A model generated the notes under the pieces. That model did no database searches. It was given only the letters and a program-made list of their open reading frames with translations, and had not been told where the DNA came from. Of a DNA stretch of 64,000 nt, positions 11,619 to 61,415 are shown one piece after another. The stretch is from a virus (taxonomy: Duplodnaviria; Caudoviricetes): the IMG/VR virus record IMGVR_UViG_3300027747_002427, one strand, 5' to 3'. The position numbers and the translations under genes were made by a program. Each line of letters opens with the position of its first letter. The stretch's first letter is position 1.

Positions 11619-12590
11619 GTGAATTTTAAAGAATTCTTTAAAGAAGCTAAATACCATCCTTCTAGAGCAGCAGGTCGCATATACAAAGCACCTAAAACCT
11701 GGAAGGATGTATTCTTTATCGAAAAGGATACAGCAAAGGAACCAGTTGAGAATTATAAGTTTACAGAAAATAAAACAGATAATACTATAGCTCGACTCTT
11801 TGGTTCTTTAAAGAAAGGTAATGTTCATGCCGCTAGTGTCTATGATTCACTTGTAAACACGACATCAGATTTAAAGTTATTCCTTTTCCATTTATCTAAA
11901 TCAAGAAGAGACTCTGATAAAAAATCAGAAGATCCAGTTACATTAAGATTAAGAAAAGAATATTACGATTCGGTTGTAGATAATACAGCTGCTATAGTTA
12001 ATAATTTATTAATTGAAAAACCTGATTCAACAGTTTTGTATATTCATTCAAGATCTCCTTTTAACGAAGCAGTTAAAGATAAAGTAGGAGCAACCGATAA
12101 ACAATTAGTACCTAAGAATACTTTAGGTGATCTAGTAGAAAGATATAGAAAAGATCCTTATTGTATTGATAAATTAGTTTCTGCTAAGAACACATCAGTT
12201 GCTAGAAAAGATATAGCCAAAGATGCTTTGATAAAACTTTTAAATATATCTAAAGACGATGAAGAATTAAAAAATGAACCCCTTTCTGTAGAAAAAATAT
12301 CAAAACTTATTATAGATAAAGATCTTATAGATTTAAATAAAGTAGCTTCTGGTGATATACAATTTGCTTCAAGATCAAATTATCTTCAAGCAGCATTTCT
12401 TCCGGAAGGTTTCTTTAATTTTGAAAATGTAAAATTAGAAAACAAATCTGTAATAGTTATAGACGATAATATTAATACCAAAGCAACCTATGATGAGATC
12501 AATCAAAAGATCAAAGAGAAGTATGGATACAAAAATATTGATTGGGTCGTTGGAGTTATTCCTAACGATGTATTACAAACTATAAAATAA
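11619..12590 (+). CDS. PRTase-like protein with capsid-targeting-like N-terminus
   Basis: VIVIDDNINTKAT resembles the PRPP-binding loop; starts MNFKEFFKEA (GTG start). Confidence 0.5.
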   Translation: MNFKEFFKEAKYHPSRAAGRIYKAPKTWKDVFFIEKDTAKEPVENYKFTENKTDNTIARLFGSLKKGNVHAASVYDSLVNTTSDLKLFLFHLSKSRRDSDKKSEDPVTLRLRKEYYDSVVDNTAAIVNNLLIEKPDSTVLYIHSRSPFNEAVKDKVGATDKQLVPKNTLGDLVERYRKDPYCIDKLVSAKNTSVARKDIAKDALIKLLNISKDDEELKNEPLSVEKISKLIIDKDLIDLNKVASGDIQFASRSNYLQAAFLPEGFFNFENVKLENKSVIVIDDNINTKATYDEINQKIKEKYGYKNIDWVVGVIPNDVLQTIK

Positions 12591-12591
12591 T

Positions 12592-13191
12592 ATGCAATTT
12601 AAAGAATTTATTAAAGAAGAAAGGAATGTAACGCCCGACATTAGAGATCACAATCTAGTTATTCTTTATGGTATGCCGGCTTCAGGTAAGTCAGCGGTTC
12701 TTAAATATGGTTTGATTAATCTTCCTAACATTCAAGTATTAACATCAGACAAGTGGACAGAGCTATTGGCTCGCAAAGAAAAGAAAGACTTGTCCAATCC
12801 GGAGAACACTAATGAATTGCATCATAGAGTATCTCCAAAGTTTGATAAACATCGTTACAATGCTACACACGTACGCAATAGGTCTAATATAGTTATAGAA
12901 AAGATTGGTAGTAGCTATCAAAAGCTTTTGGAACTTATAAATCAATCACAAGCAGATGGCTTTAGAATTGTATTAGTTTGGGTTAAAGTAGATTTAAAAA
13001 CATCTATAGAATCCAATCAAAGAAGAAATAGAAATGTTCCGGAAGAAAGAATTATGAATTCATATAAAAATACAGAATTACATTTCAATCAATTAGTTGA
13101 TAAAGTTGAAGAAGCATGGATCATAGATAATGACACGCATCCAAATTTCAATGACTTTAGAACTTCAAAATATATTAAAAGAATAAAATGA
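12592..13191 (+). CDS. P-loop kinase (AAA_33/zeta-toxin-like) with capsid-targeting-like N-terminus
   Basis: GMPASGKS Walker A; SIESNQRRNRNVPEE lid; starts MQFKEFIKEE. Confidence 0.7.
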   Translation: MQFKEFIKEERNVTPDIRDHNLVILYGMPASGKSAVLKYGLINLPNIQVLTSDKWTELLARKEKKDLSNPENTNELHHRVSPKFDKHRYNATHVRNRSNIVIEKIGSSYQKLLELINQSQADGFRIVLVWVKVDLKTSIESNQRRNRNVPEERIMNSYKNTELHFNQLVDKVEEAWIIDNDTHPNFNDFRTSKYIKRIK

Positions 13192-15812: not shown

Positions 15813-16429
15813 ATATAGTAACGATCTTGGTTTGTATCTATAGTACCGAAGTCCCAGGAGAGCTGTTTAGAGAAATAAGGAGACATACGATCATAGAGTC
15901 TGACTCTTGAGGGTTCTGCCTTAGAAGCTGAGAGTACAACTACGTTAATGTCGGGAATGTTTATACGTTTGAGATCCCCTTTGTCTTCCAGTGGCTTTAA
16001 AGTATCAAGACTTAGAGACTTTGGCCAGAGAACATCTTTCTTAGTTCTCTTAAATAGGATAGCCTTTTTGTAAACAAAGTCCTTGAGAGAAGACATAACC
16101 GTGCCGAATACTTGAGGAGATGACCCGGAACCCGTTAAGGCATGAGGATCCTTTTCGTCGTCTTCATAACCTTCTTCATTAAAGGATAGTATATAGGGAG
16201 CATTATTCTCTAAGGCTTTCTTGATATTAGGAGATAGCGTATCAACTTCCGTAGTAGAAAAGGTATCATAGATATAGGTTCTCAATAGATTAATAGCATA
16301 GTTAACATTAGATGGAGAAGTAAAGGAGCTTCTGTACATCTCATCACTTAAGAGTTCTATCCAACAAGAAGATGATGGACTATCGAATAGCTCTAATAAT
16401 AGAGAATGGACTTGTTTATCAAATTTCAT
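15797..16429 (-). CDS. Hypothetical protein with MKFD...LLLE N-terminal motif
   Basis: 210-aa ORF. Confidence 0.55.
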   Translation of the reverse strand: MKFDKQVHSLLLELFDSPSSSCWIELLSDEMYRSSFTSPSNVNYAINLLRTYIYDTFSTTEVDTLSPNIKKALENNAPYILSFNEEGYEDDEKDPHALTGSGSSPQVFGTVMSSLKDFVYKKAILFKRTKKDVLWPKSLSLDTLKPLEDKGDLKRINIPDINVVVLSASKAEPSRVRLYDRMSPYFSKQLSWDFGTIDTNQDRYYIYVRK

Positions 16430-16683
16430 TTCTTTTTCCAGGAGATACGTTTAGATCCCTTCTTGAGCTTCTTTCTATTATTACACATGGCCATAGTAGG
16501 TCGACAAGCTGGATAACCTTTACGCTTCTCTCCTGCTTGACGACCACAGGACTTACCAGTCTTGCAATCCACCCAGCCCTTGTGACCATCGGCTCCTCGG
16601 CGAGAGAACCAGCCATGAAGACCCTGTTCTTTTTCTTTCTCAAAGCCTTCTAAGATAGTAGTAACTAAAGAATCAAATCTCAT
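16426..16683 (-). CDS. Small basic Cys-containing protein (start reassigned to MRFDSLVTTILE)
   Basis: WVDCKTGKSCGR...YPACRP motif; ATG overlaps the stop of the upstream ORF. Confidence 0.6.
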   Translation of the reverse strand: MRFDSLVTTILEGFEKEKEQGLHGWFSRRGADGHKGWVDCKTGKSCGRQAGEKRKGYPACRPTMAMCNNRKKLKKGSKRISWKKK

Positions 16684-16841
16684 TTCTTTTTCCAGATCTC
16701 TCCTCGGCGACATCTTACAACGGCACCCGACTTATAGGCCGAGGTCTTCTTTCCATAGACTGCATCGGCTTTTCTAAGACAACGATCTCGTTTGACCTTC
16801 TTTTCTTCTAGGATATTAGCTACTAAGGTATCAAACTTCAT
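16680..16841 (-). CDS. 53-aa basic protein missing from the ORF track
   Basis: MKFDTLVANILEEKKVKRDRCLRKADAVYGKKTSAYKSGAVVRCRRGEIWKKK; TAAATA upstream. Confidence 0.6.
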   Translation of the reverse strand: MKFDTLVANILEEKKVKRDRCLRKADAVYGKKTSAYKSGAVVRCRRGEIWKKK

Positions 16842-22628: not shown

Positions 22629-22704
22629 GCCTGTGTAGTCCAACGGCAGAGACAAGCGACTTAAAATCGCTCCAGTATCGGTTCGAATCCGATCACAGGT
22701 ACCA
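22629..22704 (+). tRNA. tRNA-Leu(UAA), short variable loop
   Basis: GCCTGTG/CACAGGT acceptor stem, AGCGA-CTTAAAA-TCGCT anticodon arm, GTTCGAATC, encoded CCA. Confidence 0.85.
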
Positions 22705-23293
22705 CTTTAAGATTGACCTTTCCCACCAATTGCTATAATATATAAACAATGAAACACCTCCTACACCTCTTAGGGTTTACTCAACGTAAGCCTTCACTCC
22801 TCCTCATGCATATGTGTGACGTCACTCACGGCACCTGGCTTCAGGATCTTTATCGTACCAATCGTCTTAGCGACTACAACGTAAAGAAGTAACATGATCT
22901 GGCCTAAAGACCCTCCAGTGACTCGTTCCGAATTCCGCCGAGCTTTGAATCTTCATTGTCATAATAAGCTTGGAGTCAGCTTCAGTGACCTTCCAGACAT
23001 TATCAATATCGATGACGTATGGTGGGAGGGACAGACCATTGGAGAAGCTCTCACTATGATTAACAGTTGTATTGAAGACTTTAAAGAAGAAATGGGTGTT
23101 GCACTTTCCCACTAACAGGAGTATAATAATAATAATATGATCATCGAATTCTCACCTGGCAAGTTACCAAAGAGTAAAGAAGCTTTGAAGGATATTATCC
23201 TCGAAGCAGTCAAGAAGTCTTCAACGAACCCTGATGCCGTTAATGCCGGCCGACAGCCTCAGGACAATAATACAAAGGCCGGCGTTACTCAAT

Positions 23294-23512
23294 ATGCAAA
23301 CTAAAGTCACACTCACGGATCTAATTCGTAATATCTTGACCGCAGAGCAGGAGTTGTCCGTAAAGGATATCCTTACTAAAGTACAAGAGACTATTGCAGG
23401 CGAGCAGCTGACCATCAAGGCCGATTACCGTAAGGTTTATCGTCACCTTCGTACGTGCGCCACTAAGACGGCACGCGGTCAGTTCTCCCTCACCGAGACC
23501 TCTGCCTCCTAA
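23294..23512 (+). CDS. Small winged-helix-like protein
   Basis: LIRNIL...LSVKDIL...KVYRHLR...RGQFSL pattern. Confidence 0.45.
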   Translation: MQTKVTLTDLIRNILTAEQELSVKDILTKVQETIAGEQLTIKADYRKVYRHLRTCATKTARGQFSLTETSAS

Positions 23513-23536
23513 AGGTAAGTCTCGGCAACCATCAAC

Positions 23537-23627
23537 ACTGGGTTAATGTAATTGGAAGCATCGCACAGCTTATATCTGTGAATCCCTAGATGAGGGACGA
23601 GCATCGGTTCGATTCCGATACCCAGTA
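23537..23627 (+). tRNA. Atypical tRNA, anticodon UAU, long variable arm
   Basis: ACTGGGT/ACCCAGT; ATGT/GCAT D stem; CACAG-CTTATAT-CTGTG; TCCCT/AGGGA variable stem; ATCGG-TTCGATT-CCGAT. Confidence 0.75.
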
Positions 23628-23816
23628 CTTTTTATGACAGACACCAACACAACATCGAAAGAAGCAAAAGTATTCGCACTCTGCCAGGACCTGGAAGATA
23701 TGCGAGATCGTAAGAAGGCATCTAGCAAAGCCTTTAGCGATGAGATCAAGCGTATTCAAGCGGAGATCAAGGATCTTATAGATCCTTCCGAGCCTGAAGA
23801 AGCTCCATAGTATTAC

Positions 23817-23889
23817 GCCCTTGTAGCTCAATGGTCAGAGCAGTCGGCTCATAACTGATTGGTTGGGGGTTCGAATCCCTCCGGGGGCA
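23817..23889 (+). tRNA. tRNA with CAU anticodon (Met or Ile2)
   Basis: Cloverleaf with a CTCATAA loop. Confidence 0.85.
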
Positions 23890-23895
23890 CTCTAT

Positions 23896-23971
23896 GCATC
23901 GGTAGCTCAGTGGATAGAGCAGGGGTTTTCTAAACCCTTGGTCGCAGGTTCGATCCCTGCCCGATGTACCA
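23896..23971 (+). tRNA. tRNA-Arg(UCU)
   Basis: Cloverleaf with a TTTCTAA loop and encoded CCA. Confidence 0.9.
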
Positions 23972-23974
23972 TTT

Positions 23975-24046
23975 GGAATCGTAGCTCAATGGTAGAGCAG
24001 TAGACTTTTAATCTATTGGTTATGGGTTCGAGTCCCATCGATTCCA
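23975..24046 (+). tRNA. tRNA-Lys(UUU)
   Basis: Cloverleaf with a CTTTTAA loop. Confidence 0.9.
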
Positions 24047-24127
24047 CTTTAATACAACAGCATGATATAATAGCGCCGGCCTCTCTATTATCGTGAATTT
24101 TCCCACTAAATGATTGATACTAATAGT

Positions 24128-40763: not shown

Positions 40764-40997
40764 TTATTTTTCCGGTTTTAATTGCCCACCACGTCTTAAA
40801 GCTCCTCTATAATTAGAAGCTTGAAGTTTAGCTCTTTTAGAATTATGCTTTTTAACAACCCAATTACTTAATTTTTGTAATTTAGTAGAAGTTGATAACC
40901 CTTTTAAAGATACTCTAAATTTTTGCCAATCATCAGATGATACAGCTTTATCTATTTGCTGATGTGTTGCTTCATAAAAGAAGGTTTTGAAATTCAT
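40764..40997 (-). CDS. Small basic protein with capsid-targeting-like N-terminus
   Basis: MNFKTFFYEA; TAAATA upstream. Confidence 0.6.
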   Translation of the reverse strand: MNFKTFFYEATHQQIDKAVSSDDWQKFRVSLKGLSTSTKLQKLSNWVVKKHNSKRAKLQASNYRGALRRGGQLKPEK

Positions 40998-50432: not shown

Positions 50433-50506
50433 GCCTGGTTAGTTTAATGGTAAAACGGTTGATTTGTAATCATCAAACAAGAGTTCGATTCTCTTACTAG
50501 GCTCCA
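50433..50506 (+). tRNA. tRNA-Thr(UGU)
   Basis: Cloverleaf with a TTTGTAA loop and CCA. Confidence 0.85.
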
Positions 50507-50674
50507 CCATCCTTGTAGGGGGTAAGTATTTATGTGCTTACTGTATTTGAAGGCGCTATGACGGGGTTGATGCTTATTCCCTTTGTAATTGGTTATATAA
50601 CTTTTTTAATATTTAAATATACTTGTAAAATTCTTCTTGCAATTATACGTAAACTATCATAGTATATAAACCAT

Positions 50675-50746
50675 GTCCTCATAGTGTAGCGGTTAGCACC
50701 AGCCCCTTTCACGGGCTTAGCAGGGGTTCAAATCCCCTTGAGGATG
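50675..50746 (+). tRNA. tRNA-Glu(UUC)
   Basis: Cloverleaf with a CTTTCAC loop. Confidence 0.85.
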
Positions 50747-50762
50747 TTAAATAATTTTATAT

Positions 50763-50852
50763 GGAAGCTTACTCAAGCGGTTTACGAGAGCGGTTTACTA
50801 AACCGCCGAGCCTTCATCGGCTCCGTGGGTTCGAATCCCACAGCTTCCTCCA
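50763..50852 (+). tRNA. tRNA-Ser with ACU anticodon
   Basis: GCGGT-TTACTAA-ACCGC; long variable arm GAGCC/GGCTC; CCA. Confidence 0.85.
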
Positions 50853-50855
50853 TAT

Positions 50856-50933
50856 GCGTCAATGCCTGAGAAGCCCAAAGGAAAGGTCTGCAAAACCTTA
50901 AAGCCGTAGGTGCAAATCCTACTTGACGCTCCA
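50856..50933 (+). tRNA. tRNA-Cys(GCA), divergent D and T loops
   Basis: AAGGT-CTGCAAA-ACCTT; U73; CCA; T loop TGCAAAT. Confidence 0.75.
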
Positions 50934-50940
50934 TTTTAAC

Positions 50941-51029
50941 GGAAGTGTGTCTGAGTGGTTTAAAGAGTCAGTCTTGAAAACTGAAGAGGTCTAAAGCCTC
51001 CGTGGGTTCGAATCCCACCGCTTCCTCCA
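50941..51029 (+). tRNA. tRNA-Ser(UGA)
   Basis: Class II cloverleaf with a CTTGAAA loop and CCA. Confidence 0.9.
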
Positions 51030-51052
51030 TATAAAAGGGGGTAAGTATTTAT

Positions 51053-51406
51053 ATGTTTACAAGAATTAAAGATACTCTCCAAGGTAAAGCTCCTATAACA
51101 GCTTCTCGCTCTCCTAAATGGAATGGTGTGAGAGATGCACATTTAAAACAACAACCTAATTGTGCAGTTTGCGAAGGTAATGAAAATCTTAATGTTCATC
51201 ATATTAAACCCTTTCATTTACACCCAGATTTAGAATTAGAACCTACTAATCTTATTACTCTTTGTGAATGTGAGAAGCATGGTGTTAATTGTCATTTACT
51301 CATTGGGCATTTAGGTAATTTTAGAAATGTTAATCCACATGTGTTAGAAGATGTTCCACTTTGGAATGCTAGACTAAAAGAAAAAAACAATAATCCAGAC
51401 TTATAG
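51053..51406 (+). CDS. HNH endonuclease
   Basis: CAVC...NVHHIKP...NLITLC...CHLLIGH. Confidence 0.85.
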   Translation: MFTRIKDTLQGKAPITASRSPKWNGVRDAHLKQQPNCAVCEGNENLNVHHIKPFHLHPDLELEPTNLITLCECEKHGVNCHLLIGHLGNFRNVNPHVLEDVPLWNARLKEKNNNPDL

Positions 51407-51454
51407 TTATTGCCTTACTGATGAAGATGTATTAATATATACATCATAAGCATC

Positions 51455-51529
51455 CGGGATGTAGCTCAGCTTGGCTAGAGCGCTTGGTTTGGGACCAAGA
51501 TGTCGTAGGTTCGAATCCTATCATCCCGA
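51455..51529 (+). tRNA. tRNA-Pro(UGG)
   Basis: CGGGATG/CATCCCG acceptor stem; TTTGGGA loop. Confidence 0.9.
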
Positions 51530-51536
51530 AATTTAA

Positions 51537-51611
51537 TGTCGAGTAGCTCAGTGGTAGAGCGGAGAGCTGTTAACTCTTTGGTCGTAGGTTCAAATCCTAC
51601 CTCGACAGCCA
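51537..51611 (+). tRNA. tRNA-Asn(GUU)
   Basis: Cloverleaf with a CTGTTAA loop and CCA. Confidence 0.9.
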
Positions 51612-52311
51612 ACTTTTTTTGAAACTCTTAGGGTAAGTAATATCATCTATGACCCTTTCTCCAGTAGTTTCCTCTCTCCCAGCCACTCCAAATATAGGGT
51701 GGAATAATTCTTGGGTTTCCGTACCCAATGACCAAAGTAGATCTTTATTTGCTCAAGCAATGTATAAAGTTAATGAATTAGGTAGTAATGGAATTACAGT
51801 TATTGCTGGGACTAATCAAGTAGATGGTAAATTTGGGGGTCTTCAAACAATAACTTCAACGGTTTTTGCAGGATTGACTTCTTCCGGGACTACAGCAGTA
51901 AGTGCGATATCTATTCCTACATTCCCAGCTGGGTTCGTTTTAAACGGCAATTTTACATCTATAAAATTAACAAGTGGTCAAGTCATTGCTTATAACGCTT
52001 AAATTATAAATATAATATCATGAGTATAAAAATAGTAACAAAACCAGAAGAATCATTAACAATTGAATCCGTAGAAGTAATAGCTGTAAGAGATTTATTT
52101 GACGAAAAAAAGATTATAGCTCGTATAGCAGGTCTCCCTAGAGGCGTTATCCTTTGGGAAGGAGATACAGAATATACAGCAGCCGGTAATTGGACAAATG
52201 AAACAGCAATAGCTAAGGCAAACGAGGTTATTAATTCCGGTTCTATTAAGTGGGCTTAATTTAGCTTAAAAAACTAATTGCATTTATTAATCATTTCTTT
52301 ATAATAAGGGA

Positions 52312-53310
52312 ATGATTAATTTTGTTGATATCATAGTAGGTCTTGCTTGGGGGGATGAAGGCAAAGGTAAAGTCTCAAGCGCTTTAGCCAAAGATTATGA
52401 CATGGTATGTCGTTGGAATGGTGGTCCAAATGCTGGTCATACGGTTTATCTAAATGATAAGAAATATAAAACACATCTGATTCCTTCTGGAGTATTTCAC
52501 GGTAAGCCTTCTATTATAGGTCCTAATTGTGTTATTAATATCAGCAAGTTTTGGGAAGAGATGGAATATCTTAAAGAGAATGGGTTTGATACTTCTTTAG
52601 TAAAAATTCATCCTCATGCTCATGTGATTACTAAAGATCATATTAAATTTGATTTGGATTATCTCAAACCAAAATTAGGAACAACCGGTCAAGGCATTGC
52701 TCCTTGTTATGCGGCAAAAGCAAATAGAGTAGGAGTTCAAATTAAAGATTCTTCGATTGATCCGATATATCATTGGAATGGAAAATTACAAGGTAAAATT
52801 CTTTGCGAAGGAGCACAAAGTATTTGGTTGGATATCAATTACGGGGATTATCCTTATGTAACAAGTTCTGAAACGTTTCCTCATAATGCTTGTTCTCTTG
52901 GATTTTCTCCAAAAAAGATCAGAGACATTATTGGAGTAGCAAAGATCTATGATACAAAAAGTGGTGTAGATCCTTTATTTCCAGAAACACTTTGGGACGA
53001 TCCTATTCTTGATAAAGTCATTGAAATTGGAGGAGAAGTAGGAACGACAACTGGAAGAAAAAGAATTGTAAACTGGCTAAATGTTAGAAAGCTAGTTGAG
53101 GCTATTAATCTTTCAGGAGTAACAAAGCTTATTATTAATAAGTGTGATGTACTAGAAAAGGTTGGCGAATTTAGATATAATTTTGATAATAATGGATTTG
53201 TATCAATTGGTCTTAATCCATTTAAGAAAAGTTTAACAAAAGATATAATAGAAAACACAGAACTTAAAGAAGAAGATATTGTATTTTCCGGTGACACGAC
53301 TAAAATATAA
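52312..53310 (+). CDS. purA: Adenylosuccinate synthetase
   Basis: WGDEGKGK, GGPNAGHT, GTTGQGIAP, EGAQ, YPYVTSS, GTTTGRKR, NKCD. Confidence 0.93.
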   Translation: MINFVDIIVGLAWGDEGKGKVSSALAKDYDMVCRWNGGPNAGHTVYLNDKKYKTHLIPSGVFHGKPSIIGPNCVINISKFWEEMEYLKENGFDTSLVKIHPHAHVITKDHIKFDLDYLKPKLGTTGQGIAPCYAAKANRVGVQIKDSSIDPIYHWNGKLQGKILCEGAQSIWLDINYGDYPYVTSSETFPHNACSLGFSPKKIRDIIGVAKIYDTKSGVDPLFPETLWDDPILDKVIEIGGEVGTTTGRKRIVNWLNVRKLVEAINLSGVTKLIINKCDVLEKVGEFRYNFDNNGFVSIGLNPFKKSLTKDIIENTELKEEDIVFSGDTTKI

Positions 53311-53312
53311 CC

Positions 53313-53627
53313 ATGAGTAATTCCACATCATCAGCCTTCAAAGGCATTCCCACTAAACTTACAAACAATCCAGAGGTTGTTGAAGAAATTCTTCTTACAG
53401 AAGTTCCTGTAATTGATGAGACTTTATTAGAAACACCATCTACTGAAACACCTATAGTTGAAGTACCAATTGCAGAAGGTTCATTATTAGAGAATCCTAT
53501 TATTGATGAAACTTTATTAGAAGAAGGTTCTTTAGAAGAACAACATAAAGATCTTTTGAAGAAAGAGGAAAGTGTTTTGGAAAGAAAGATTGAAGTTTTA
53601 GAAGAACTTAAAACTTTAATTTCTTAA
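53313..53627 (+). CDS. Acidic low-complexity protein with repeated LLE/IxE motifs
   Basis: IDETLLE occurs twice; also SLLE, ILLTE, VLE. Confidence 0.55.
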   Translation: MSNSTSSAFKGIPTKLTNNPEVVEEILLTEVPVIDETLLETPSTETPIVEVPIAEGSLLENPIIDETLLEEGSLEEQHKDLLKKEESVLERKIEVLEELKTLIS

Positions 53628-53635
53628 AAATTTAT

Positions 53636-53706
53636 TTCCTGGTGGTGTAATGGTAGCACAAGAGTTTTTGGCACTCTTTGTCGAGGTTCGAGTCCTTGCC
53701 GGGAAG
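53636..53706 (+). tRNA. tRNA-Gln(UUG)
   Basis: Cloverleaf with a TTTTGGC loop. Confidence 0.85.
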
Positions 53707-54114
53707 CTTTTTAGTTGATATTCCTTTATAAAACATTTAATATATAAACAATGAGCGAAGAAAATACAAAGACAGTAAGACTAATGGAATCCTTTACCAC
53801 ATATGAGTGCCATGGAGACATTAAACTTAATCTTGATATTTTCCCGGAATTGAAAGATAAGACAAATCAAGAAATTCAAACTTGGTTAAATGAAAATTCT
53901 GGTAATCTTTATATTGATTGTTATAGCCAAGAACTTCGCAAAGATCAATATTATATATATTCCCAAGAAGAATTAGATGATATGTTGGTTAATGGAGAAG
54001 ATCCTGAAATAGATGATAGTGTAATAGAACTTTCAGAATATTGGTCAAATACGGAAGTGATTTGGGATAAAATCAAGTGTGAAGAAAAGACTTTGCATGT
54101 ACAATAATTTAAAT

Positions 54115-54199
54115 GGGTAGATCGCATAGCGGCAATTGCCGGAGACTGTAAATCTCCTCTCCTCGGAGTTCGAAGGTTCGAGTCCTTCTCTGCCCACCA
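54115..54199 (+). tRNA. tRNA-Tyr(GUA)
   Basis: Class II cloverleaf with a CTGTAAA loop and CCA. Confidence 0.9.
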
Positions 54200-54868
54200 T
54201 TTTATGAAAATTAAAACTAAACTTACAAAAATTTGTACAGGTGTTTATCTTTGCGAAATTGATAATGCTTATGATTTGGCAATGACTTTTTGTAGGGTTC
54301 AAGAATTTTATGAATCTTCTTTTGAGCAAATAAGAGGCAAAAATTTTAATATGATGGAATTTCAAAGAATTTATTCTTTGAAAAATGGAGGAACTTTTAC
54401 ATATCCTGAAGACTGGTCTGGTTTTAATATTCCTAGTGGTATTTTAGATAAATTTTATAAAGGTTCTTGGGTTCAGACAGATTGGAATATGTATGATTCA
54501 GTATTAAAAAAAGTGATCAATCAAATAAAAGAAAACAAACCTTATTATTTGATAGGGACACAGAAAAAGGATCAAGATACCATCAATCATGAATTATGTC
54601 ATGCGTTTTATAAATTAGATAAAAAATATAAAAAAAGTGTAACCAAACTTATTAATAGTATTCCAAGAAGACTTTTAGATAAAATGAAAAATGTTCTTCG
54701 TAAAACCGGATATTGCGATAATGTATTAAGAGATGAAATACAAGCATATCTTTCCTGTGACCAAGCCTTTTTAGGCGATGCAATAAGATCCGATTGGGAG
54801 AAAATAGAAAAGTGGGGTATTGTTTTTGAAAAACATTTTAATAAACATATTACCCTAAATATAAAGAA

Positions 54869-56008
54869 ATGAACTTTAAAGATTTCTATAACAACGAAGA
54901 AGGACACATGGTTCTTGTTAAAGACGTTGAGATTAGTGAGGCGTTATCATATCACCTGAAACATAAATTAACCTTAAGTGAAAATGCTTTTAGAATATAT
55001 TCAGATCAATACTTTGCTTTAATTCAAGAAGCTAGAGATCTTTATAATCAAGATGCCTTGGCTTTAAATGACGAAGATGTAGAATTAGTTGAATCTTCTT
55101 TAGGTGAAAAAGCAATTTACAACGGAAGAGAAGTTTATTTAGAAGCCCCTCTTTATCTAAGTGAGGATATTATATTAGAAGCAACATTGGAGCCTAATTC
55201 TATTGATACAACAATTTATGTTGATATGGATGGGGTTTTAGCTGATTTAAGAAAAGCAGTTTGTCAATATGTTGGTAAAGATCATGTTGAAGACGAAGAT
55301 TATGACAAATATTTCTTAGATCATAAAGACAATATAAAAGATTGTTTTAGAAATCTTACAAAATTCGATTCAACAGATTATTTAATTAAGCTTGTTTCGG
55401 ATGTTGCAGGGTCTTATAAAATTTGTTCATCGCCTTTAAGAAGTGATAGAGAAAATTCATCCATCGGAAAAAGTGAATGGTTAGAATCCAATTTAGAAAT
55501 TAAACCTTTAGAGAAAATTTTTACAGGCCGCAAAGAGTCCTATGCTACTACAAACGGCAAACCTAATATTTTAATAGATGATAAAGAAAAAAATATTAGA
55601 AGGTGGGAAGATAAAGGCGGAATAGGAATTCTTTATTCGGCAGAACATGATAGTCTAGACACAATTGTTCAAGGTTTAGAAAGAGCTAAAAAAATATTAA
55701 TGGGTGAAAGTACAATTACAGAAGCTATTAAAAATGGTAAAAAAGTAAAACTCGGCCATCCATTTAGAACCCCAGGAGGTCCTAAGAAATTTGCCGTTTA
55801 TGTTAAGACACCCAAAGGTTCTATCAAGAAAGTAACCTTTGGAGATCCTAATATGAAGGTTCGTAATAATAATAAAGCTAGAGCTAAATCATTTAGAGCA
55901 AGACATAAATGTTCTCAAAAGAAAGATAGAACAACGGCTGGTTATTGGAGCTGTAATGTTTCTCGATATCGTAAAGCTTTAGGTTTAAAATCTTCAAGAG
56001 TCTGGTAA
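54869..56008 (+). CDS. Three-module protein: N-terminal domain, HAD 5'(3')-deoxyribonucleotidase-like domain, basic C-terminal domain
   Basis: IYVDMDGVLAD and ILIDD HAD motifs; KVKLGHPFRTPGGPKKFAVYVK...TFGDP C-terminal module. Confidence 0.75.
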   Translation: MNFKDFYNNEEGHMVLVKDVEISEALSYHLKHKLTLSENAFRIYSDQYFALIQEARDLYNQDALALNDEDVELVESSLGEKAIYNGREVYLEAPLYLSEDIILEATLEPNSIDTTIYVDMDGVLADLRKAVCQYVGKDHVEDEDYDKYFLDHKDNIKDCFRNLTKFDSTDYLIKLVSDVAGSYKICSSPLRSDRENSSIGKSEWLESNLEIKPLEKIFTGRKESYATTNGKPNILIDDKEKNIRRWEDKGGIGILYSAEHDSLDTIVQGLERAKKILMGESTITEAIKNGKKVKLGHPFRTPGGPKKFAVYVKTPKGSIKKVTFGDPNMKVRNNNKARAKSFRARHKCSQKKDRTTAGYWSCNVSRYRKALGLKSSRVW

Positions 56009-56307
56009 TGAGCCTTCCGTTTCAGCAAGAAAGGATATCTGATAAAGAAGTTATCAGATCATTTTCAGAATTTATAGATGAAGAAGATTTAAAATGGCAT
56101 TTTGATAAAGAAGACAGAATAGTTGAAGCTTTAGAACCTACGGATTGGTTAATTCAATTTGATAACCAATTACCCCAATTAATAGAAGGCAAAATAGAAA
56201 TCCCTGCTGGAATATATCACAGAGTAATAAAAGGAAAAAAAGATTTTAAAATTAAAATTAAAATGTCTTGATCTTTCTTATCAGGTGTATTAATATAAAC
56301 ATGATAT

Positions 56308-56383
56308 GCACGAGTAGCTCAGTGGTAGTAGCGTTTCGCTTACACCGAAAATGTCGGGGGTTCGAATCCCTCCTCGTGTACCA
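56308..56383 (+). tRNA. tRNA-Val(UAC)
   Basis: Cloverleaf with a CTTACAC loop and CCA. Confidence 0.9.
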
Positions 56384-56384
56384 T

Positions 56385-56457
<73 letters not shown>

Positions 56458-57027
56458 CTCCACTATTATGAATTCTTTAATAACAAATTTTCTAATTTTA
56501 GTAGGGGTTTGTTATATTATAGCTTTTATAGCGTCTATAATTTATAGACTAAGACACCCAAGCAAAAAGAACTTGATAGAAGAAGGTTGTCGTTTGGTTA
56601 TCTATAAAATAGCTACAAAAAGAAAAGGAAAATATTTTACTACCTTTAATACTTTAAAACATGATTTAAGATTAAATGTAATTGGAATAAACAAAGAAAA
56701 TGCTTGCGAAATAACAAGGTGCGTTTTAGAAAAATTGATGGAAAATAAAATAATTGAATTAGATACACATTTGGAAATTGATGTTTATCATGAAATTTAA
56801 AATATTAATATTTTTTTTATACATCACATCAATATTTGCCAAAGATACTAACTCTAATAATGGCTCAATTGATTTAAACAAATTTTTATCAGATATGCAA
56901 GATCAATATTATCTTAAAATTATAGAAAAGAAAAAAATTGATATAATCTTGACAGGTCAAACCTTTTTCGATTATAATATTAATCGTAATTATACCTATA
57001 GTTGTTTTAAAATAAAATTTTAATAAA

Positions 57028-57549
57028 ATGCATAAAGATTTAGAAAATATATTATTCTCAAAAATTTCCCTTTCAGCAAAAATTAAATCTCTTGGAAGAA
57101 CTATTAGTAAAGATTACAAAGAAGAGCCTTTAACTATTATCAGTCTTATGGCTGGTAGTATTTTATTTACAGCTGATTTAATAAGGGAAATCAATATTCC
57201 AATTCAATTATACACTATAACAGTCTCAAGTTATAATGGAGAAAAAATAAGTTCAGGGACGCTCAATATTCAAGGGCATATACCAGATTGTAAAGATAAA
57301 AACGTTTTAATAGTAGATGATATTTTAGATTCCGGTTTAACTCTTTATACGTTAAAAAACCGATTAAATGAATTGAATCCCAAATCAGTTAAAACTTGTG
57401 TTTTATTAAATAAGAAAATTGAAAGACCATATACAATAGATCCTGATTATTATGGATTTGAAATAGGAGAAGAATTTGTTGTAGGTTATGGATTAGATTA
57501 TCAGGGACTATATAGAAATATCCCTTATATTGGTACTCTTAAGAATTAA
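57028..57549 (+). CDS. hpt: Hypoxanthine phosphoribosyltransferase
   Basis: GSILFTADL, SSY, VLIVDDILDSGLTL, FVVGYGLDY..YRNIPYIG. Confidence 0.92.
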   Translation: MHKDLENILFSKISLSAKIKSLGRTISKDYKEEPLTIISLMAGSILFTADLIREINIPIQLYTITVSSYNGEKISSGTLNIQGHIPDCKDKNVLIVDDILDSGLTLYTLKNRLNELNPKSVKTCVLLNKKIERPYTIDPDYYGFEIGEEFVVGYGLDYQGLYRNIPYIGTLKN

Positions 57550-57550
57550 T

Positions 57551-58141
57551 ATGAATTGTGGATATTTAAAAAGAGAAACGGTTTTAGTTTTAAATCGTAA
57601 TTGGCAAGCTATACACGTTAAATCACCGGCTGAAGCATTGGCTGCAATGTTCAGTGATGATGCAACCGGCCTAGATGTTCAAGGAACAGATAATATGATT
57701 CCTTATAGATGGGATCAATGGATTAATTTGCCTTATGATGAAAATGCTTCTTACATTAAAACAGTAAGAGGAGATATAAAAATACCAAAGATTATTATCC
57801 TAGCAGAATTTGATAAAGTTCCACAAAAAAGACCAAAGTTTTCTTCTAAAGCTATTTGGAGAAGAGATGAAAGTATTTGCCAATATACAGGTCAAAAATT
57901 AACTCCTAATGAGGGTAATATTGATCATGTTATTCCAAGATCAAAAGGCGGCAAGACTAGTTGGACTAACTGTGTTTTAGTTCATAAAGAAGTAAATGCT
58001 AGGAAAGCGGATAAAATGCCACATGAAGCAGGTTTAAAATTAATCAGACAACCACAAATTCCTAAAGCATTACCTACTACATTTTACATTAAAAATAAAC
58101 ATAAAATCCAGGAATGGGAAATTTTCTTAAAATATGAATAG
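57551..58141 (+). CDS. HNH endonuclease (McrA-like)
   Basis: VLVLN, RRDESICQYTG, IDHVIPRSKGG..SWTNCV. Confidence 0.85.
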   Translation: MNCGYLKRETVLVLNRNWQAIHVKSPAEALAAMFSDDATGLDVQGTDNMIPYRWDQWINLPYDENASYIKTVRGDIKIPKIIILAEFDKVPQKRPKFSSKAIWRRDESICQYTGQKLTPNEGNIDHVIPRSKGGKTSWTNCVLVHKEVNARKADKMPHEAGLKLIRQPQIPKALPTTFYIKNKHKIQEWEIFLKYE

Positions 58142-58538
58142 AATATCTTGGGAAGAATATGCTTTAAAAATAGCAGAAGTAGCTTCATTAAGAAGTGAGG
58201 ATCCTCGTACTAAAGTAGGTTGCTGTTTACTTCGCACAGATAATACCGTAGCTAGTTTAGGTTATAATGGAGCTCCAGCTGGAGTGGAAATAGAATGGAA
58301 TAACCGTGAAGAAAAACACAAAAGGGTTATTCACGCAGAGATTAATGCTCTTAGAATGGTTAAACCAGGAGAGTGTTATCTAGCAGCAGTAACTCATTCT
58401 TGTTGCAATGATTGTTTAAAATCTTTAGCAGCCTACGGAATCAAAAAAATAATTTATAAAACTCATTACGATACAGGCACCTCATATTCATTTACAGAGA
58501 TAGCCAAAGATTTCGGAATTGAAGTAGTAAATTTATGA
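58134..58538 (+). CDS. dCMP deaminase
   Basis: RSEDP..KVGC, GYNG, IHAEINAL, CCNDC zinc motif. Confidence 0.9.
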   Translation: MNRISWEEYALKIAEVASLRSEDPRTKVGCCLLRTDNTVASLGYNGAPAGVEIEWNNREEKHKRVIHAEINALRMVKPGECYLAAVTHSCCNDCLKSLAAYGIKKIIYKTHYDTGTSYSFTEIAKDFGIEVVNL

Positions 58539-58730
58539 TTTACGGTGGCTTTGTTTCCACCATTTACACCAACCATTTGGTTTAATATCACCAGCTACAG
58601 CTGAACACTTATTAGGCGAACGCCACATAGTACATTCATCACAGCGTTGACCCTTTACAGTGTGATCAACGTAACCTGCTTCTGATTTAGGATGTTTGGC
58701 TTTTTCTTCTATAAATGTTTTGAAATTCAT
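58533..58730 (-). CDS. HiPIP-like [4Fe-4S] protein with capsid-targeting-like N-terminus
   Basis: GY..H..KGQRCDEC..W....KC..VAGDIKPNGWC..W; starts MNFKTFIEE. Confidence 0.75.
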   Translation of the reverse strand: MNFKTFIEEKAKHPKSEAGYVDHTVKGQRCDECTMWRSPNKCSAVAGDIKPNGWCKWWKQSHRKS

Positions 58731-58738
58731 AGAATTAT

Positions 58739-60412
58739 TTATGCCTCACAACTCTTACAAGTCATAATTGAACGAGCAAGTTCTTTTGCTGGGTTAGAAC
58801 TTCTCTGATAATAGAGACTTTTAATTCCATTTTCCCATGCAAAAATGATAAGCTCATTTACTGCTTTAGGCGGTGTTCCTGCTGGAATCATAAGATTCAA
58901 ACTTTGACCCTGATCAATATATTTTTGTCTAGCAGATGCTTGAATAACAATTTCTTTTTGAGAAGTTTCAGCAAAGGTTTTAAATACATCTTTTTCTTCT
59001 TGAGTAAGAAAATTAAGATGTTGAATTGATCCTCCATGAGTTAGAATATCTTTCCAGGTTTCTTCGTCATTCTTATCTTTGGATTTGAGTAATGCTTTAA
59101 GATAAGGATTTTTATAAGTGAATTTGCCCTTTGCTAAATCTTTAACAAAGTAATTTGATTCTAAAGGTTCAATACTTGGAGATACTTGACCAAGAATAAA
59201 TGAACTAGAGGTTGTAGGAGCTACCGCTAAAGTAGTCGTATTTCTACGATTGCAACCTTTTAGTAATTCTGGTTCTCCTATTAATTCGGAAAGATCTTTA
59301 GTTGCTTTGTCTGCTCTTTCTCTTATGGTTTTCCAAATAGTTGAATTAAGAAGCTTTGCTTCCATGGATTCAAATGCAATCATTTTAGATTGTAAAAGTG
59401 AATGCCAACCGAGAATACCAAGACCTAATGCTCTATGCCTTACTGCAAAATTTCTAGGCGCATCCATAAAAGGCATACCTTCGGTTTTATTAATAAATTC
59501 TGACATAACAGCATCCAAGAAATAAATCATCGTTTCTACTGCATCAGTATCTTTCCATTCTTCCCACTTTTCCAAATTCATAGAAGAAAGATCACAAACA
59601 AATGATTCTTCTTCATTATTAGGAAGCATAATTTCTGTACAAAGATTAGAATGATTAATCTTCATCTTTGCATCTTTATAAACTTGCGGAGCTTGATTGT
59701 TTACATTATCGGTAAAGAAAATATAAGGATAACCAGATTCAAAACGCTTCTTAAGAACAAGACCCCAAATTCTACGCTTTTCTTTATCTCCTTCAATCAT
59801 AGATTTCATCCATTCATCGGTAATGGTAACACCGATAGAAAGATTTTGAATACTGTTTCCTTCTGAGCGAATAGCTAAGAATTCTTCTATGTCCTTATGA
59901 TCAATAGGAAGATATGAAGCAAAAGACCCACGACGAACATTCCCTTGAGAAATGACACTCATGAGGCTTTCAAAGAGTTCCATGAAATGAACCGTACCTG
60001 TAGATTCACCACCTGATGAGATAGGTTCTCCTCTGCCTCTTAAGGAGCCGAAATAAGCTGAAGTACCTCCACCTCCTTTTGTCATCATTCCAACTTCTGA
60101 AACCTTTTCTAAGATACCTTCCATGGTATCTGGAATATGAGAACCGAAGCAAGAAATAGGAAGACCTCTTTTACGACCGAAATTAGACCAAATAGGAGAT
60201 GCTAAAGAATAAAATCCTCTATGCATGTAATCTTCAAACTTTTTTGCAAATTTTGTATCGCCTGTAAATTCTACTAAAATCTTTTGAGCAGCTTTTGCTA
60301 TATCATGAATTCTTTGTTCTGGTGTTTCGTCTTCTAAAAGATAACCTCTCTGGAGAAATTTTCTTGAATCCTTGTTTAGCCAATAAATGTTGCTTGTTGC
60401 CTCTGTAGTCAT
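58739..60412 (-). CDS. nrdA: Ribonucleotide reductase class Ia alpha subunit (no ATP cone)
   Basis: ISCF, GGGTS, RRG, SNLCTEI, GLGILG, APTTSSS, YIDQGQSLN, SLYY, CKSC. Confidence 0.95.
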   Translation of the reverse strand: MTTEATSNIYWLNKDSRKFLQRGYLLEDETPEQRIHDIAKAAQKILVEFTGDTKFAKKFEDYMHRGFYSLASPIWSNFGRKRGLPISCFGSHIPDTMEGILEKVSEVGMMTKGGGGTSAYFGSLRGRGEPISSGGESTGTVHFMELFESLMSVISQGNVRRGSFASYLPIDHKDIEEFLAIRSEGNSIQNLSIGVTITDEWMKSMIEGDKEKRRIWGLVLKKRFESGYPYIFFTDNVNNQAPQVYKDAKMKINHSNLCTEIMLPNNEEESFVCDLSSMNLEKWEEWKDTDAVETMIYFLDAVMSEFINKTEGMPFMDAPRNFAVRHRALGLGILGWHSLLQSKMIAFESMEAKLLNSTIWKTIRERADKATKDLSELIGEPELLKGCNRRNTTTLAVAPTTSSSFILGQVSPSIEPLESNYFVKDLAKGKFTYKNPYLKALLKSKDKNDEETWKDILTHGGSIQHLNFLTQEEKDVFKTFAETSQKEIVIQASARQKYIDQGQSLNLMIPAGTPPKAVNELIIFAWENGIKSLYYQRSSNPAKELARSIMTCKSCEA

Positions 60413-60443: not shown

Positions 60444-61415
60444 TTAAAACAAGTCTGATTCGTCAAAAGATTGATTCTTTTTTGAGTACTCAACTGGACG
60501 AGAATGGAAAAAGTCGGTCATGTTATTTCCAAGAAGCTCTTCTTCAAACCATTTAGTTTTGCTTAATAATTCCTTATCAACTTCAAAAACCGGTTTGAAC
60601 TTAATTTGTTTGAGAGAATCATTAATACGATTCTTAATAAATTCTTTAAGAATAGGTGCAGTAAGATTTTCTTCTTTAATACCGTTAACCATCCAATCAA
60701 CAATTTCTGATTCGGATTCAAAAGCTTGCTTTGCTTCATGTGCAATCTTTGCTTCCAATTCTTCATCAAAAAGCTCTGGATACTCTTCTCTAATTGTATT
60801 AATGATTCTAGTACCAACAAGTCCATGAATCTGTTCTTCGTTACGAGTATACTTTACTTGTTGATCAGTATCCTTTAAGACATTCTTAAATCTCGCAAAC
60901 CAATTAATGACATAGAATTGTGAGAATAGAGAAACATTCTCAACGAACAATGTAAATAAGATTAAAGCATAAAGATATTGCTTCTTGGAATCCTTATAGA
61001 AGCGATGTGTATACTTTCTAAGATATTTTACACGACCTTCAATCCAATCTAACTTGAGGTTCTCTTCAAAAATATCTTCCAAGCCAAGAGCTGAAATTAA
61101 TCTTTCATATGCATTGTTATGAATAACTTCCACGTTAGCCATTACATATCCAAGATCAGAAAGTGATGGGTGAGGAAGATTCTCACCAAGTTTTGCCCAA
61201 AAGGTTTTGACTGCTATTTCAATTTGACCGATAGCTGAGAGAGTACGGATAACAATTTCTCTTTCCTGATCATTAAGATTTACTTTAAATTGTTGAATAT
61301 CAGATTTAAAATTGAATTCTTTGTCGGTCCAAAAGCCGTTGTGCATGGCTTCAATAAATTCTTCTGTCCAAGGATAAAGGTTAGGTTTGCGTGAAATTTG
61401 TTCATTGAATATCAT
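60444..61415 (-). CDS. nrdB: Ribonucleotide reductase class Ia beta subunit
   Basis: FWTDKEF, EVIHNNAY, FVENVSLFSQF, NEEQIH, DFF. Confidence 0.95.
   Translation of the reverse strand: MIFNEQISRKPNLYPWTEEFIEAMHNGFWTDKEFNFKSDIQQFKVNLNDQEREIVIRTLSAIGQIEIAVKTFWAKLGENLPHPSLSDLGYVMANVEVIHNNAYERLISALGLEDIFEENLKLDWIEGRVKYLRKYTHRFYKDSKKQYLYALILFTLFVENVSLFSQFYVINWFARFKNVLKDTDQQVKYTRNEEQIHGLVGTRIINTIREEYPELFDEELEAKIAHEAKQAFESESEIVDWMVNGIKEENLTAPILKEFIKNRINDSLKQIKFKPVFEVDKELLSKTKWFEEELLGNNMTDFFHSRPVEYSKKNQSFDESDLF

Follow-up and report, generated by a model that had tools for sequence, protein, structure and literature searches.

A phage-encoded mini-HiPIP with a candidate T4-type capsid-targeting leader

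We analysed a 64,000-nucleotide stretch of DNA from a virus of the class Caudoviricetes (IMG/VR record IMGVR_UViG_3300027747_002427; this whole stretch is referred to as the window) and found that the 65-aa ORF at 58533–58730 on the minus strand is a real gene encoding a member of the HiPIP family. This assignment is well supported by the ORF list, the Pfam HIPIP match, the match to PioC and the predicted fold; the stop codon of the gene occupies 58533–58535. In textbooks, HiPIPs appear as electron carriers in the periplasm of phototrophs and of iron or sulfur oxidisers. The phage protein combines two known kinds of protein, the HiPIP family and the internal phage proteins tagged with a capsid-targeting sequence (CTS). 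With modest confidence, we favour the explanation that it is a [4Fe-4S] protein that is packaged in the capsid, trimmed by a protease and injected. Its leader, which resembles the one used by T4 to load proteins into the head, and its lack of an export signal make it probable that the virion carries the protein and delivers it along with the DNA. We infer cluster binding, packaging, cleavage and injection from the evidence described below.

The phage ORF matched the Pfam family HIPIP (PF01355) with 23.8 bits (E = 5.6e-5; gathering cut-off 22). Its closest solved relative was PioC of Rhodopseudomonas palustris TIE-1 (PDB 6XYV), which was matched at E = 3e-7 by the single sequence and shares 38–40% identity with the phage ORF across the whole domain. 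When a profile of 84 family members was compared with the PDB, the matches were HiPIPs only, and PioC was matched at E = 7e-18 over residues 3–53 of its 54-residue chain. The earlier note on this DNA had described a HiPIP-like protein, and both the Pfam score above the cut-off and the homology to PioC agree with this description. Its cysteine pattern, C-x2-C-x8-C-x12-C, was located as C30, C33, C42 and C55, the quoted peptide being exact in the ORF, and the Y and GWC residues of short HiPIPs that it had pointed out are present as Y20 and a GWC motif. Y20, the four cysteines and V45 were invariant in the 84 aligned sequences. The Trp/Phe positions are conserved, and W36, W54 and W57 are kept in close relatives. 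The predicted mature domain, residues 10–65 (58536–58703, minus strand), has a pI of 9.6 and contains the HiPIP core, namely Y20, C30, C33, C42, C55, W36, W54 and W57.

A structure prediction, which the earlier note had proposed as a check, gave a HiPIP fold. The AF2 model built on a shallow alignment of 17 close homologs was unusable (pLDDT 49). With the 84-row alignment the pLDDT was 85, exceeding 90 in the core and being about 55 for the first ten residues. In a Foldseek search of this model against the PDB, all of the top 18 matches were HiPIPs, with an rmsd of 1.1 Å for 1isu, a TM-score of 0.78 for PioC and superpositions on HiPIPs at 1.1–2.3 Å; benzylsuccinate synthase beta was among the weak matches. 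The PHROGs search with the phage HiPIP protein gave no match. From the homology to PioC, a proven cluster protein, we strongly infer that the phage protein binds a [4Fe-4S] cluster.

Sixteen metagenomic proteins were 69–86% identical to the phage HiPIP, relatives were encoded at 67 IMG/VR loci, and the nearest ESM Atlas clusters were 100% viral and auto-named 'HiPIP domain-containing'. Among 50,697 GenBank phage records, homologs were found only in the cultured freshwater T4-like cyanophage S-SRM01 (QPX48026.1) and in one uncultured huge phage. With a threshold of E <= 1e-3, an exhaustive profile search returned 1576 cluster representatives. We sorted a set of 162 rows, made up of the best 150 representatives and the 16 close homologs, into ∼50 long fusions, 38 short proteins starting at the core, ∼29 short proteins with a window-like leader and 18 proteins with Tat-like leaders. 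In a tree of the domain, built from 44 columns with a quick search and mostly unresolved, the window protein grouped with CTS-like and lysin-fusion rows (SH-aLRT 91) and without Tat rows; 15 of the 18 Tat-like leaders fell in one group apart from that of the window. A search of the bare homologs against genome contigs gave no matches, a result that says nothing on their spread in cellular genomes or prophages. No paper dealing with phage HiPIPs came up in full-text literature searches, and in UniProt some of these proteins bear no more than the automatic label 'HiPIP domain-containing'. We observed that three loci of G001-type phages (L009, L010 and L020) encode 120–122-aa proteins in which a basic extension of ∼50 residues, ending in ...YLNYHC, follows the HiPIP at its C-terminus, which shows that the domain is extended as well as fused. 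A 215-aa ORF of the window was considered as the counterpart of a 215-aa neighbour in the relatives and was rejected, the two being unrelated.

The N-terminus of the phage HiPIP is fixed by the sequence upstream. An in-frame TGA lies five codons before the ATG and no start codon occurs between them, so the protein must begin with MNFKTFIEE and a longer leader is impossible. With this stop in place, neither a Tat nor a Sec signal can be encoded ahead of the protein. Moreover, neither a twin-arginine motif nor a hydrophobic stretch was found in the phage HiPIP sequence. The absence of a Tat signal claimed in the earlier note is therefore borne out.

The first nine residues, MNFKTFIEE (58704–58730, minus strand), form a candidate T4-type capsid-targeting propeptide, with a predicted prohead-protease site at F-I-E/I-E-E. 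The N-termini of T4 IPII and IPIII, taken from NC_000866, read MKTYQEFIAE. The ten-residue leader of T4 is sufficient to direct a protein to the capsid; residues 4 and 7 matter most for this targeting, residues 8 and 10 are needed for processing, and gp21 cleaves after L/I-x-E (PMC9026906). In MNFKTFIEE, the residues F3, F6, I7 and E9 have the F-x-x-F-I-x-E spacing of MKTYQEFIAE with the register shifted by one, the window leader being one residue shorter than that of T4. The S-SRM01 homolog starts with MKSFQEFLFE, which is in exact register with the T4 leader. Further homologs start with MKTFKQFLAE, MKSFRDFLTE or MKTFKEFFIE, several have F instead of L/I at P3, and a longer leader form is also seen among them (e.g. 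MNFNKIVQAFLEE). Although the leaders diverge, the viral homologs have a hydrophobic-x-E junction directly ahead of the HiPIP core, whose first residues are basic. AT-rich 5′ ends favour K, N, F, I and E codons and thereby inflate the occurrence of such motifs. However, S-SRM01 is GC-richer and none of the 24 genes neighbouring its HiPIP homolog has such a leader (0/24), which argues that the leader motif is not merely an AT-rich 5′-end effect.

The leader is not confined to the HiPIP gene. We scanned the six-frame translation of the 64-kb window with the strict pattern M-x(1-2)-[FY]-x-x-F-[ILF]-x-E and obtained matches at gene starts only, in 4 genes compared with 0.19 expected. A looser form of the leader was present in 8 of the 131 non-overlapping ORFs of the window. 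The 25 nt upstream contained TAAATA in 6 of these 8 ORFs, as against 16 of the 123 others (Fisher p = 2.6e-4). Among the tagged ORFs is a basic 77-aa ORF (40764–40997, minus strand; pI 10.5) with the leader MNFKTFFYE and a tGTAAATA box upstream; its first 14 coding nucleotides are identical to those of the HiPIP gene, and the upstream box is also shared. On the plus strand, a 323-aa ORF with the leader MNFKEFFKE and no Pfam family (11619–12590) is adjoined by a 199-aa ORF with the leader MQFKEFIKE (12592–13191). A basic 53-aa ORF (16680–16841, minus strand; pI 10.2) has the long leader form MKFDTLVANILEE and lies downstream of a copy of TATAAATA, the exact T4 late consensus. The fifth example is a basic, Cys-rich 85-aa ORF (16426–16683, minus strand; pI 10.2) with the leader MRFDSLVTTILEG. 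When the leader-bearing window ORFs were compared by tblastn with the first set of fetched loci, no homologs were found; one was found later in the related record G004, where the 85-aa ORF has a 69% homolog. This 85-aa ORF has a four-Cys pattern of its own (DC...SC...AC...MC), so that it may be a further small cargo that binds metal. The HiPIP gene of phage G001 comes directly after a gene starting with MKKFKEFFTE.

No Pfam family was found for the tagged ORFs examined, and the small ones are basic (pI 10.2–10.5). In these respects they resemble, by analogy, the internal proteins of the T-even phages, which are diverse cargoes with the capsid-targeting sequence as their sole shared part (PMC3012670).

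The box preceding the HiPIP gene, cATAAATA (58736–58743, minus strand), lies 5 nt before its ATG, overlaps the stop codon of nrdA and matches the T4 late consensus at 7 of 8 positions. The exact consensus was not enriched in the window, where 10 copies were counted and ∼14 were expected from an estimate based on base composition. We therefore call the late motif put forward in the earlier note a late-promoter-like box and do not claim it as a proven promoter.

A leader of this kind would be removed by a T4-type prohead protease. Within the 64-kb window, we found no head genes and no prohead protease. Peptidase_S77 (T4 gp21) was present in 4 of 5 large related records and in all three of those that are at least 90% complete, and it was also found in a further record, the fifth to have it (G007), and in S-SRM01. 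The protease-bearing G004 and the window have ∼20 genes in common at 50–84% identity. The presence of S77 in the relatives, including G004, indicates that the window phage very probably comes from a lineage having a T4-type prohead protease, an assignment that rests on these relatives. The packaging tag that the earlier note had proposed in place of a Tat signal is therefore supported by the match to the CTS residues, by the co-tagged basic ORFs and by the gp21-type protease of the relatives.

In the window, sixteen tRNA genes are arranged in two clusters (22629–24047 and 50433–56458), with an unusual Ser(ACT) call and an Ile(TAT), which is in keeping with a large phage genome (roughly 200 kb). 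A 332-aa protein encoded at 52312–53310 (plus strand) matched PHROG 1211, a family of adenylosuccinate-synthetase-like proteins with a PurZ-type annotation, at 2.8e-68; it may be a PurA or a PurZ, and could hint at a modified purine pathway. In the related 218-kb phage L002, genes for ribosomal protein S21, ThyX and an IMPDH-like protein are found near the HiPIP locus (L002 8237–8452).

On the favoured explanation, the phage protein would be a PioC-type mini-HiPIP, a domain of ∼55 residues in which one [4Fe-4S] cluster is wrapped by four cysteines and an aromatic shield. The Tat signal of its cellular relatives would have been lost, and a nine-residue T4-type capsid-targeting propeptide would stand in its place. 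The protein would be made in the cytoplasm, and its cluster would be loaded by the Fe-S assembly machinery of the host. The leader would then recruit it into the prohead scaffolding core, where a gp21-type (S77) prohead protease is predicted to cut the leader off after Glu8 or Glu9. The mature basic protein of 6.4 kDa (pI 9.6) would be kept with the packaged DNA and would enter the next host together with it, an entry that we model on T4 IPI, IPII and IPIII. Several observations count against this explanation: the shorter leader and the F at P3 of several homologs, the bias of AT-rich 5′ ends towards such residues, the lack of head genes and of a protease in the window, the nucleotide-metabolism surroundings of the gene, and the exact late consensus not being enriched. 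HiPIP clusters are buried and oxygen-tolerant, and the HiPIP fold is the smallest known [4Fe-4S] fold. By our own reasoning, a small oxygen-tolerant HiPIP could survive in the virion and pass through the tail folded. Our guess is that after entry it might act as a compact, oxygen-tolerant metalloprotein effector, either redox-active or binding and inhibiting a host factor. A role in countering redox-based defence, which had been suggested in the earlier note, is pure speculation.

We also looked at the proteins in which the HiPIP-like domain is part of a longer chain. Viral proteins in which the domain is joined to head and effector modules make up many of the best 150 of the 1576 representatives. 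In 53 long representatives, the partners were portal (5), MuF (3), XkdF-type prohead protease (2), InPase (3) and GH19 (3), as well as DUF2213, LysM, Acb1, NUDIX and ParB. A structural search of the viral models in BFVD found the domain in prohead protease, SppA-type protease, XkdF, zeta toxin, ParB, HAD and helicase proteins. Such partner domains are a hallmark of head-packaged, injected polyvalent proteins (Iyer et al. 2017, PMC5512222), a paper in which HiPIP, iron-sulfur and 4Fe occur 0 times. One HiPIP relative is flanked by virion-type lysins. The surroundings of the bare homologs are suggestive rather than decisive, portal, terminase, MuF or capsid genes being seen at only a minority of 17 loci. 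Head or packaging genes lay within 5 kb at only about one-fourth of the loci surveyed, which counts against packaging.

The best surviving alternative is an unpackaged HiPIP-fold protein that stays free in the cytoplasm, where during infection it would regulate or inhibit a host or phage enzyme or be its redox partner. Its N-terminal residues would then form an interaction helix or simply an amphipathic start of the ordinary kind. The absence of an export signal fits this alternative equally well, small subunits with a HiPIP fold do exist in the cytoplasm (e.g. benzylsuccinate synthase beta), the gene lies among early-type nucleotide-metabolism genes, and leader-like residues are favoured at AT-rich gene starts. 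However, the leader match falls on all four functionally mapped CTS residues, the hydrophobic-x-E junction is conserved despite the divergence of the leaders, the leader is common to several unrelated small basic ORFs, and fusions of the domain to portal, MuF and prohead protease recur. Altogether, we consider the cytoplasmic alternative possible but doubtful.

The nrdA gene for the RNR large subunit (58739–60412, minus strand; Pfam Ribonuc_red_lgC, 1.2e-96) ends 8 nt upstream of the HiPIP gene on the same strand, in agreement with the order given in the earlier note, and is itself preceded by nrdB for the small subunit (60444–61415, minus strand; Pfam Ribonuc_red_sm, 3e-45). No terminator was found between nrdA and the HiPIP gene. 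At its 3′ end, the HiPIP gene is convergent with a dCMP deaminase gene and overlaps it by 6 nt. The gene thus lies within a nucleotide-metabolism cluster, and may be co-transcribed with non-late genes. An HNH endonuclease gene (57530–58141, plus strand) is located between the phosphoribosyltransferase and dCMP deaminase genes, overlaps both, and looks like a homing-endonuclease insertion.

E. coli YfaE is a [2Fe-2S] ferredoxin that is encoded behind nrdAB and serves the NrdB cofactor. A YfaE-like role has to be weighed, in which the HiPIP would service the class I RNR by giving NrdB electrons or iron for its di-iron tyrosyl cofactor. Such a role is favoured by the placing of the gene on the strand of nrdB-nrdA, 8 nt after them and without an intervening terminator, by the same gene order in the near-twin L008 and by the presence of nrdBA 8 kb from the HiPIP gene in one further clade (L029, L035 and L036). 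However, the linkage is not conserved. The HiPIP gene is found behind nrdA only in the window and L008, which amounts to 1 of the 67 IMG/VR loci; there was no nrdA adjacency in the other 66 or in L002–L007. The HiPIP identities are also out of step with those of the neighbouring genes. Compared with the window, L008 has neighbours that are 91–98% identical but a HiPIP of only 79% identity, whereas in the distant phage G001 (L092) the HiPIP is 85% identical, nrdA 22% and the other shared proteins at most 52%. Therefore, the gene moves between phages independently of RNR, and the sequences suggest that it is exchanged in a cassette-like manner. Furthermore, HiPIPs operate at high potential and are poor reductants, and YfaE, as a [2Fe-2S] ferredoxin, has a different fold. 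The role in RNR cofactor maintenance proposed in the earlier note is thus not supported, given the rarity of the adjacency and the independent movement of the gene, and we regard it as unlikely. A 379-aa deoxyribonucleotidase-like protein encoded in the window (54869–56008, plus strand) has a 46-aa stretch with 52% identity to G001 DNA at 193519–193653, which lies directly upstream of the G001 HiPIP gene.

It is similarly improbable that the Cys4 site holds, for example, Zn instead of [4Fe-4S] and forms a structural knuckle, whatever the location of the protein: the Pfam score is barely over the cut-off and one fusion protein has a sub-threshold zinc-finger match, but the ligands are spaced exactly as in PioC, with 38–40% identity over the whole domain, the conserved Tyr and Trp/Phe shield serves a cubane rather than a Zn site, and the model superposes on HiPIPs.

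A leaderless viral HiPIP aimed at the capsid would give a textbook periplasmic fold a second and very different career, and a metalloprotein would be added to the proteins known to be injected by phages. The finding also bears on the iron contained in aquatic virions. The finding can be tested in the cultured phage S-SRM01 and in the T4 capsid-targeting system. More tentatively, the PioC-like mini-HiPIP might be an unrecognised and widespread cargo of phage heads, packaged either by a T4-type leader or by fusion and acting in the next host. The fusion routes would be portal, MuF, prohead protease and ejected lysins, and the folded, oxygen-tolerant [4Fe-4S] domain would serve as an immediate redox- or iron-bearing effector, for instance against host defence or in priming a di-iron RNR. 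If so, virions would for the first time have been shown to transport an electron-carrier fold of the iron-sulfur type, and each of them would contain hundreds of Fe atoms.

The phage protein can be compared with four known systems. Its mature domain has the same length as PioC (∼54 aa) and the same C-x2-C-x8-C-x12-C spacing, both proteins have the conserved Tyr, the GWC motif and the aromatic shield, and both are basic (pI 9.3 for PioC and 9.6 for the phage protein). However, PioC, the smallest characterised HiPIP, is a periplasmic protein with a Tat signal and takes part in photoferrotrophic electron transfer, whereas the phage protein is virus-encoded, cannot be exported by Tat or Sec and carries a CTS-like propeptide. 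YfaE is similar in that a gene for a small iron-sulfur protein lies directly behind the class I RNR genes; it differs in fold, cluster type and potential range, and the linkage of the phage HiPIP gene is not conserved.

The likeness to T4 IPI, IPII and IPIII lies in a propeptide of ∼10 residues with an aromatic, an aromatic, I/L and E at the same intervals as in T4, followed by a small basic mature protein, in several unrelated cargoes per genome having only the leader in common, and in a gp21-type protease, present here in the relatives. The cargo differs in being an iron-sulfur protein fold, unlike any T4 one, and the window phage is only distantly T4-like; packaging, cleavage and injection of the phage HiPIP are predicted here from sequence. 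Finally, as in the polyvalent and the MuF- or portal-linked effectors, the HiPIP-like domain is fused in other phages to the modules of that class, whereas the window protein stands alone.
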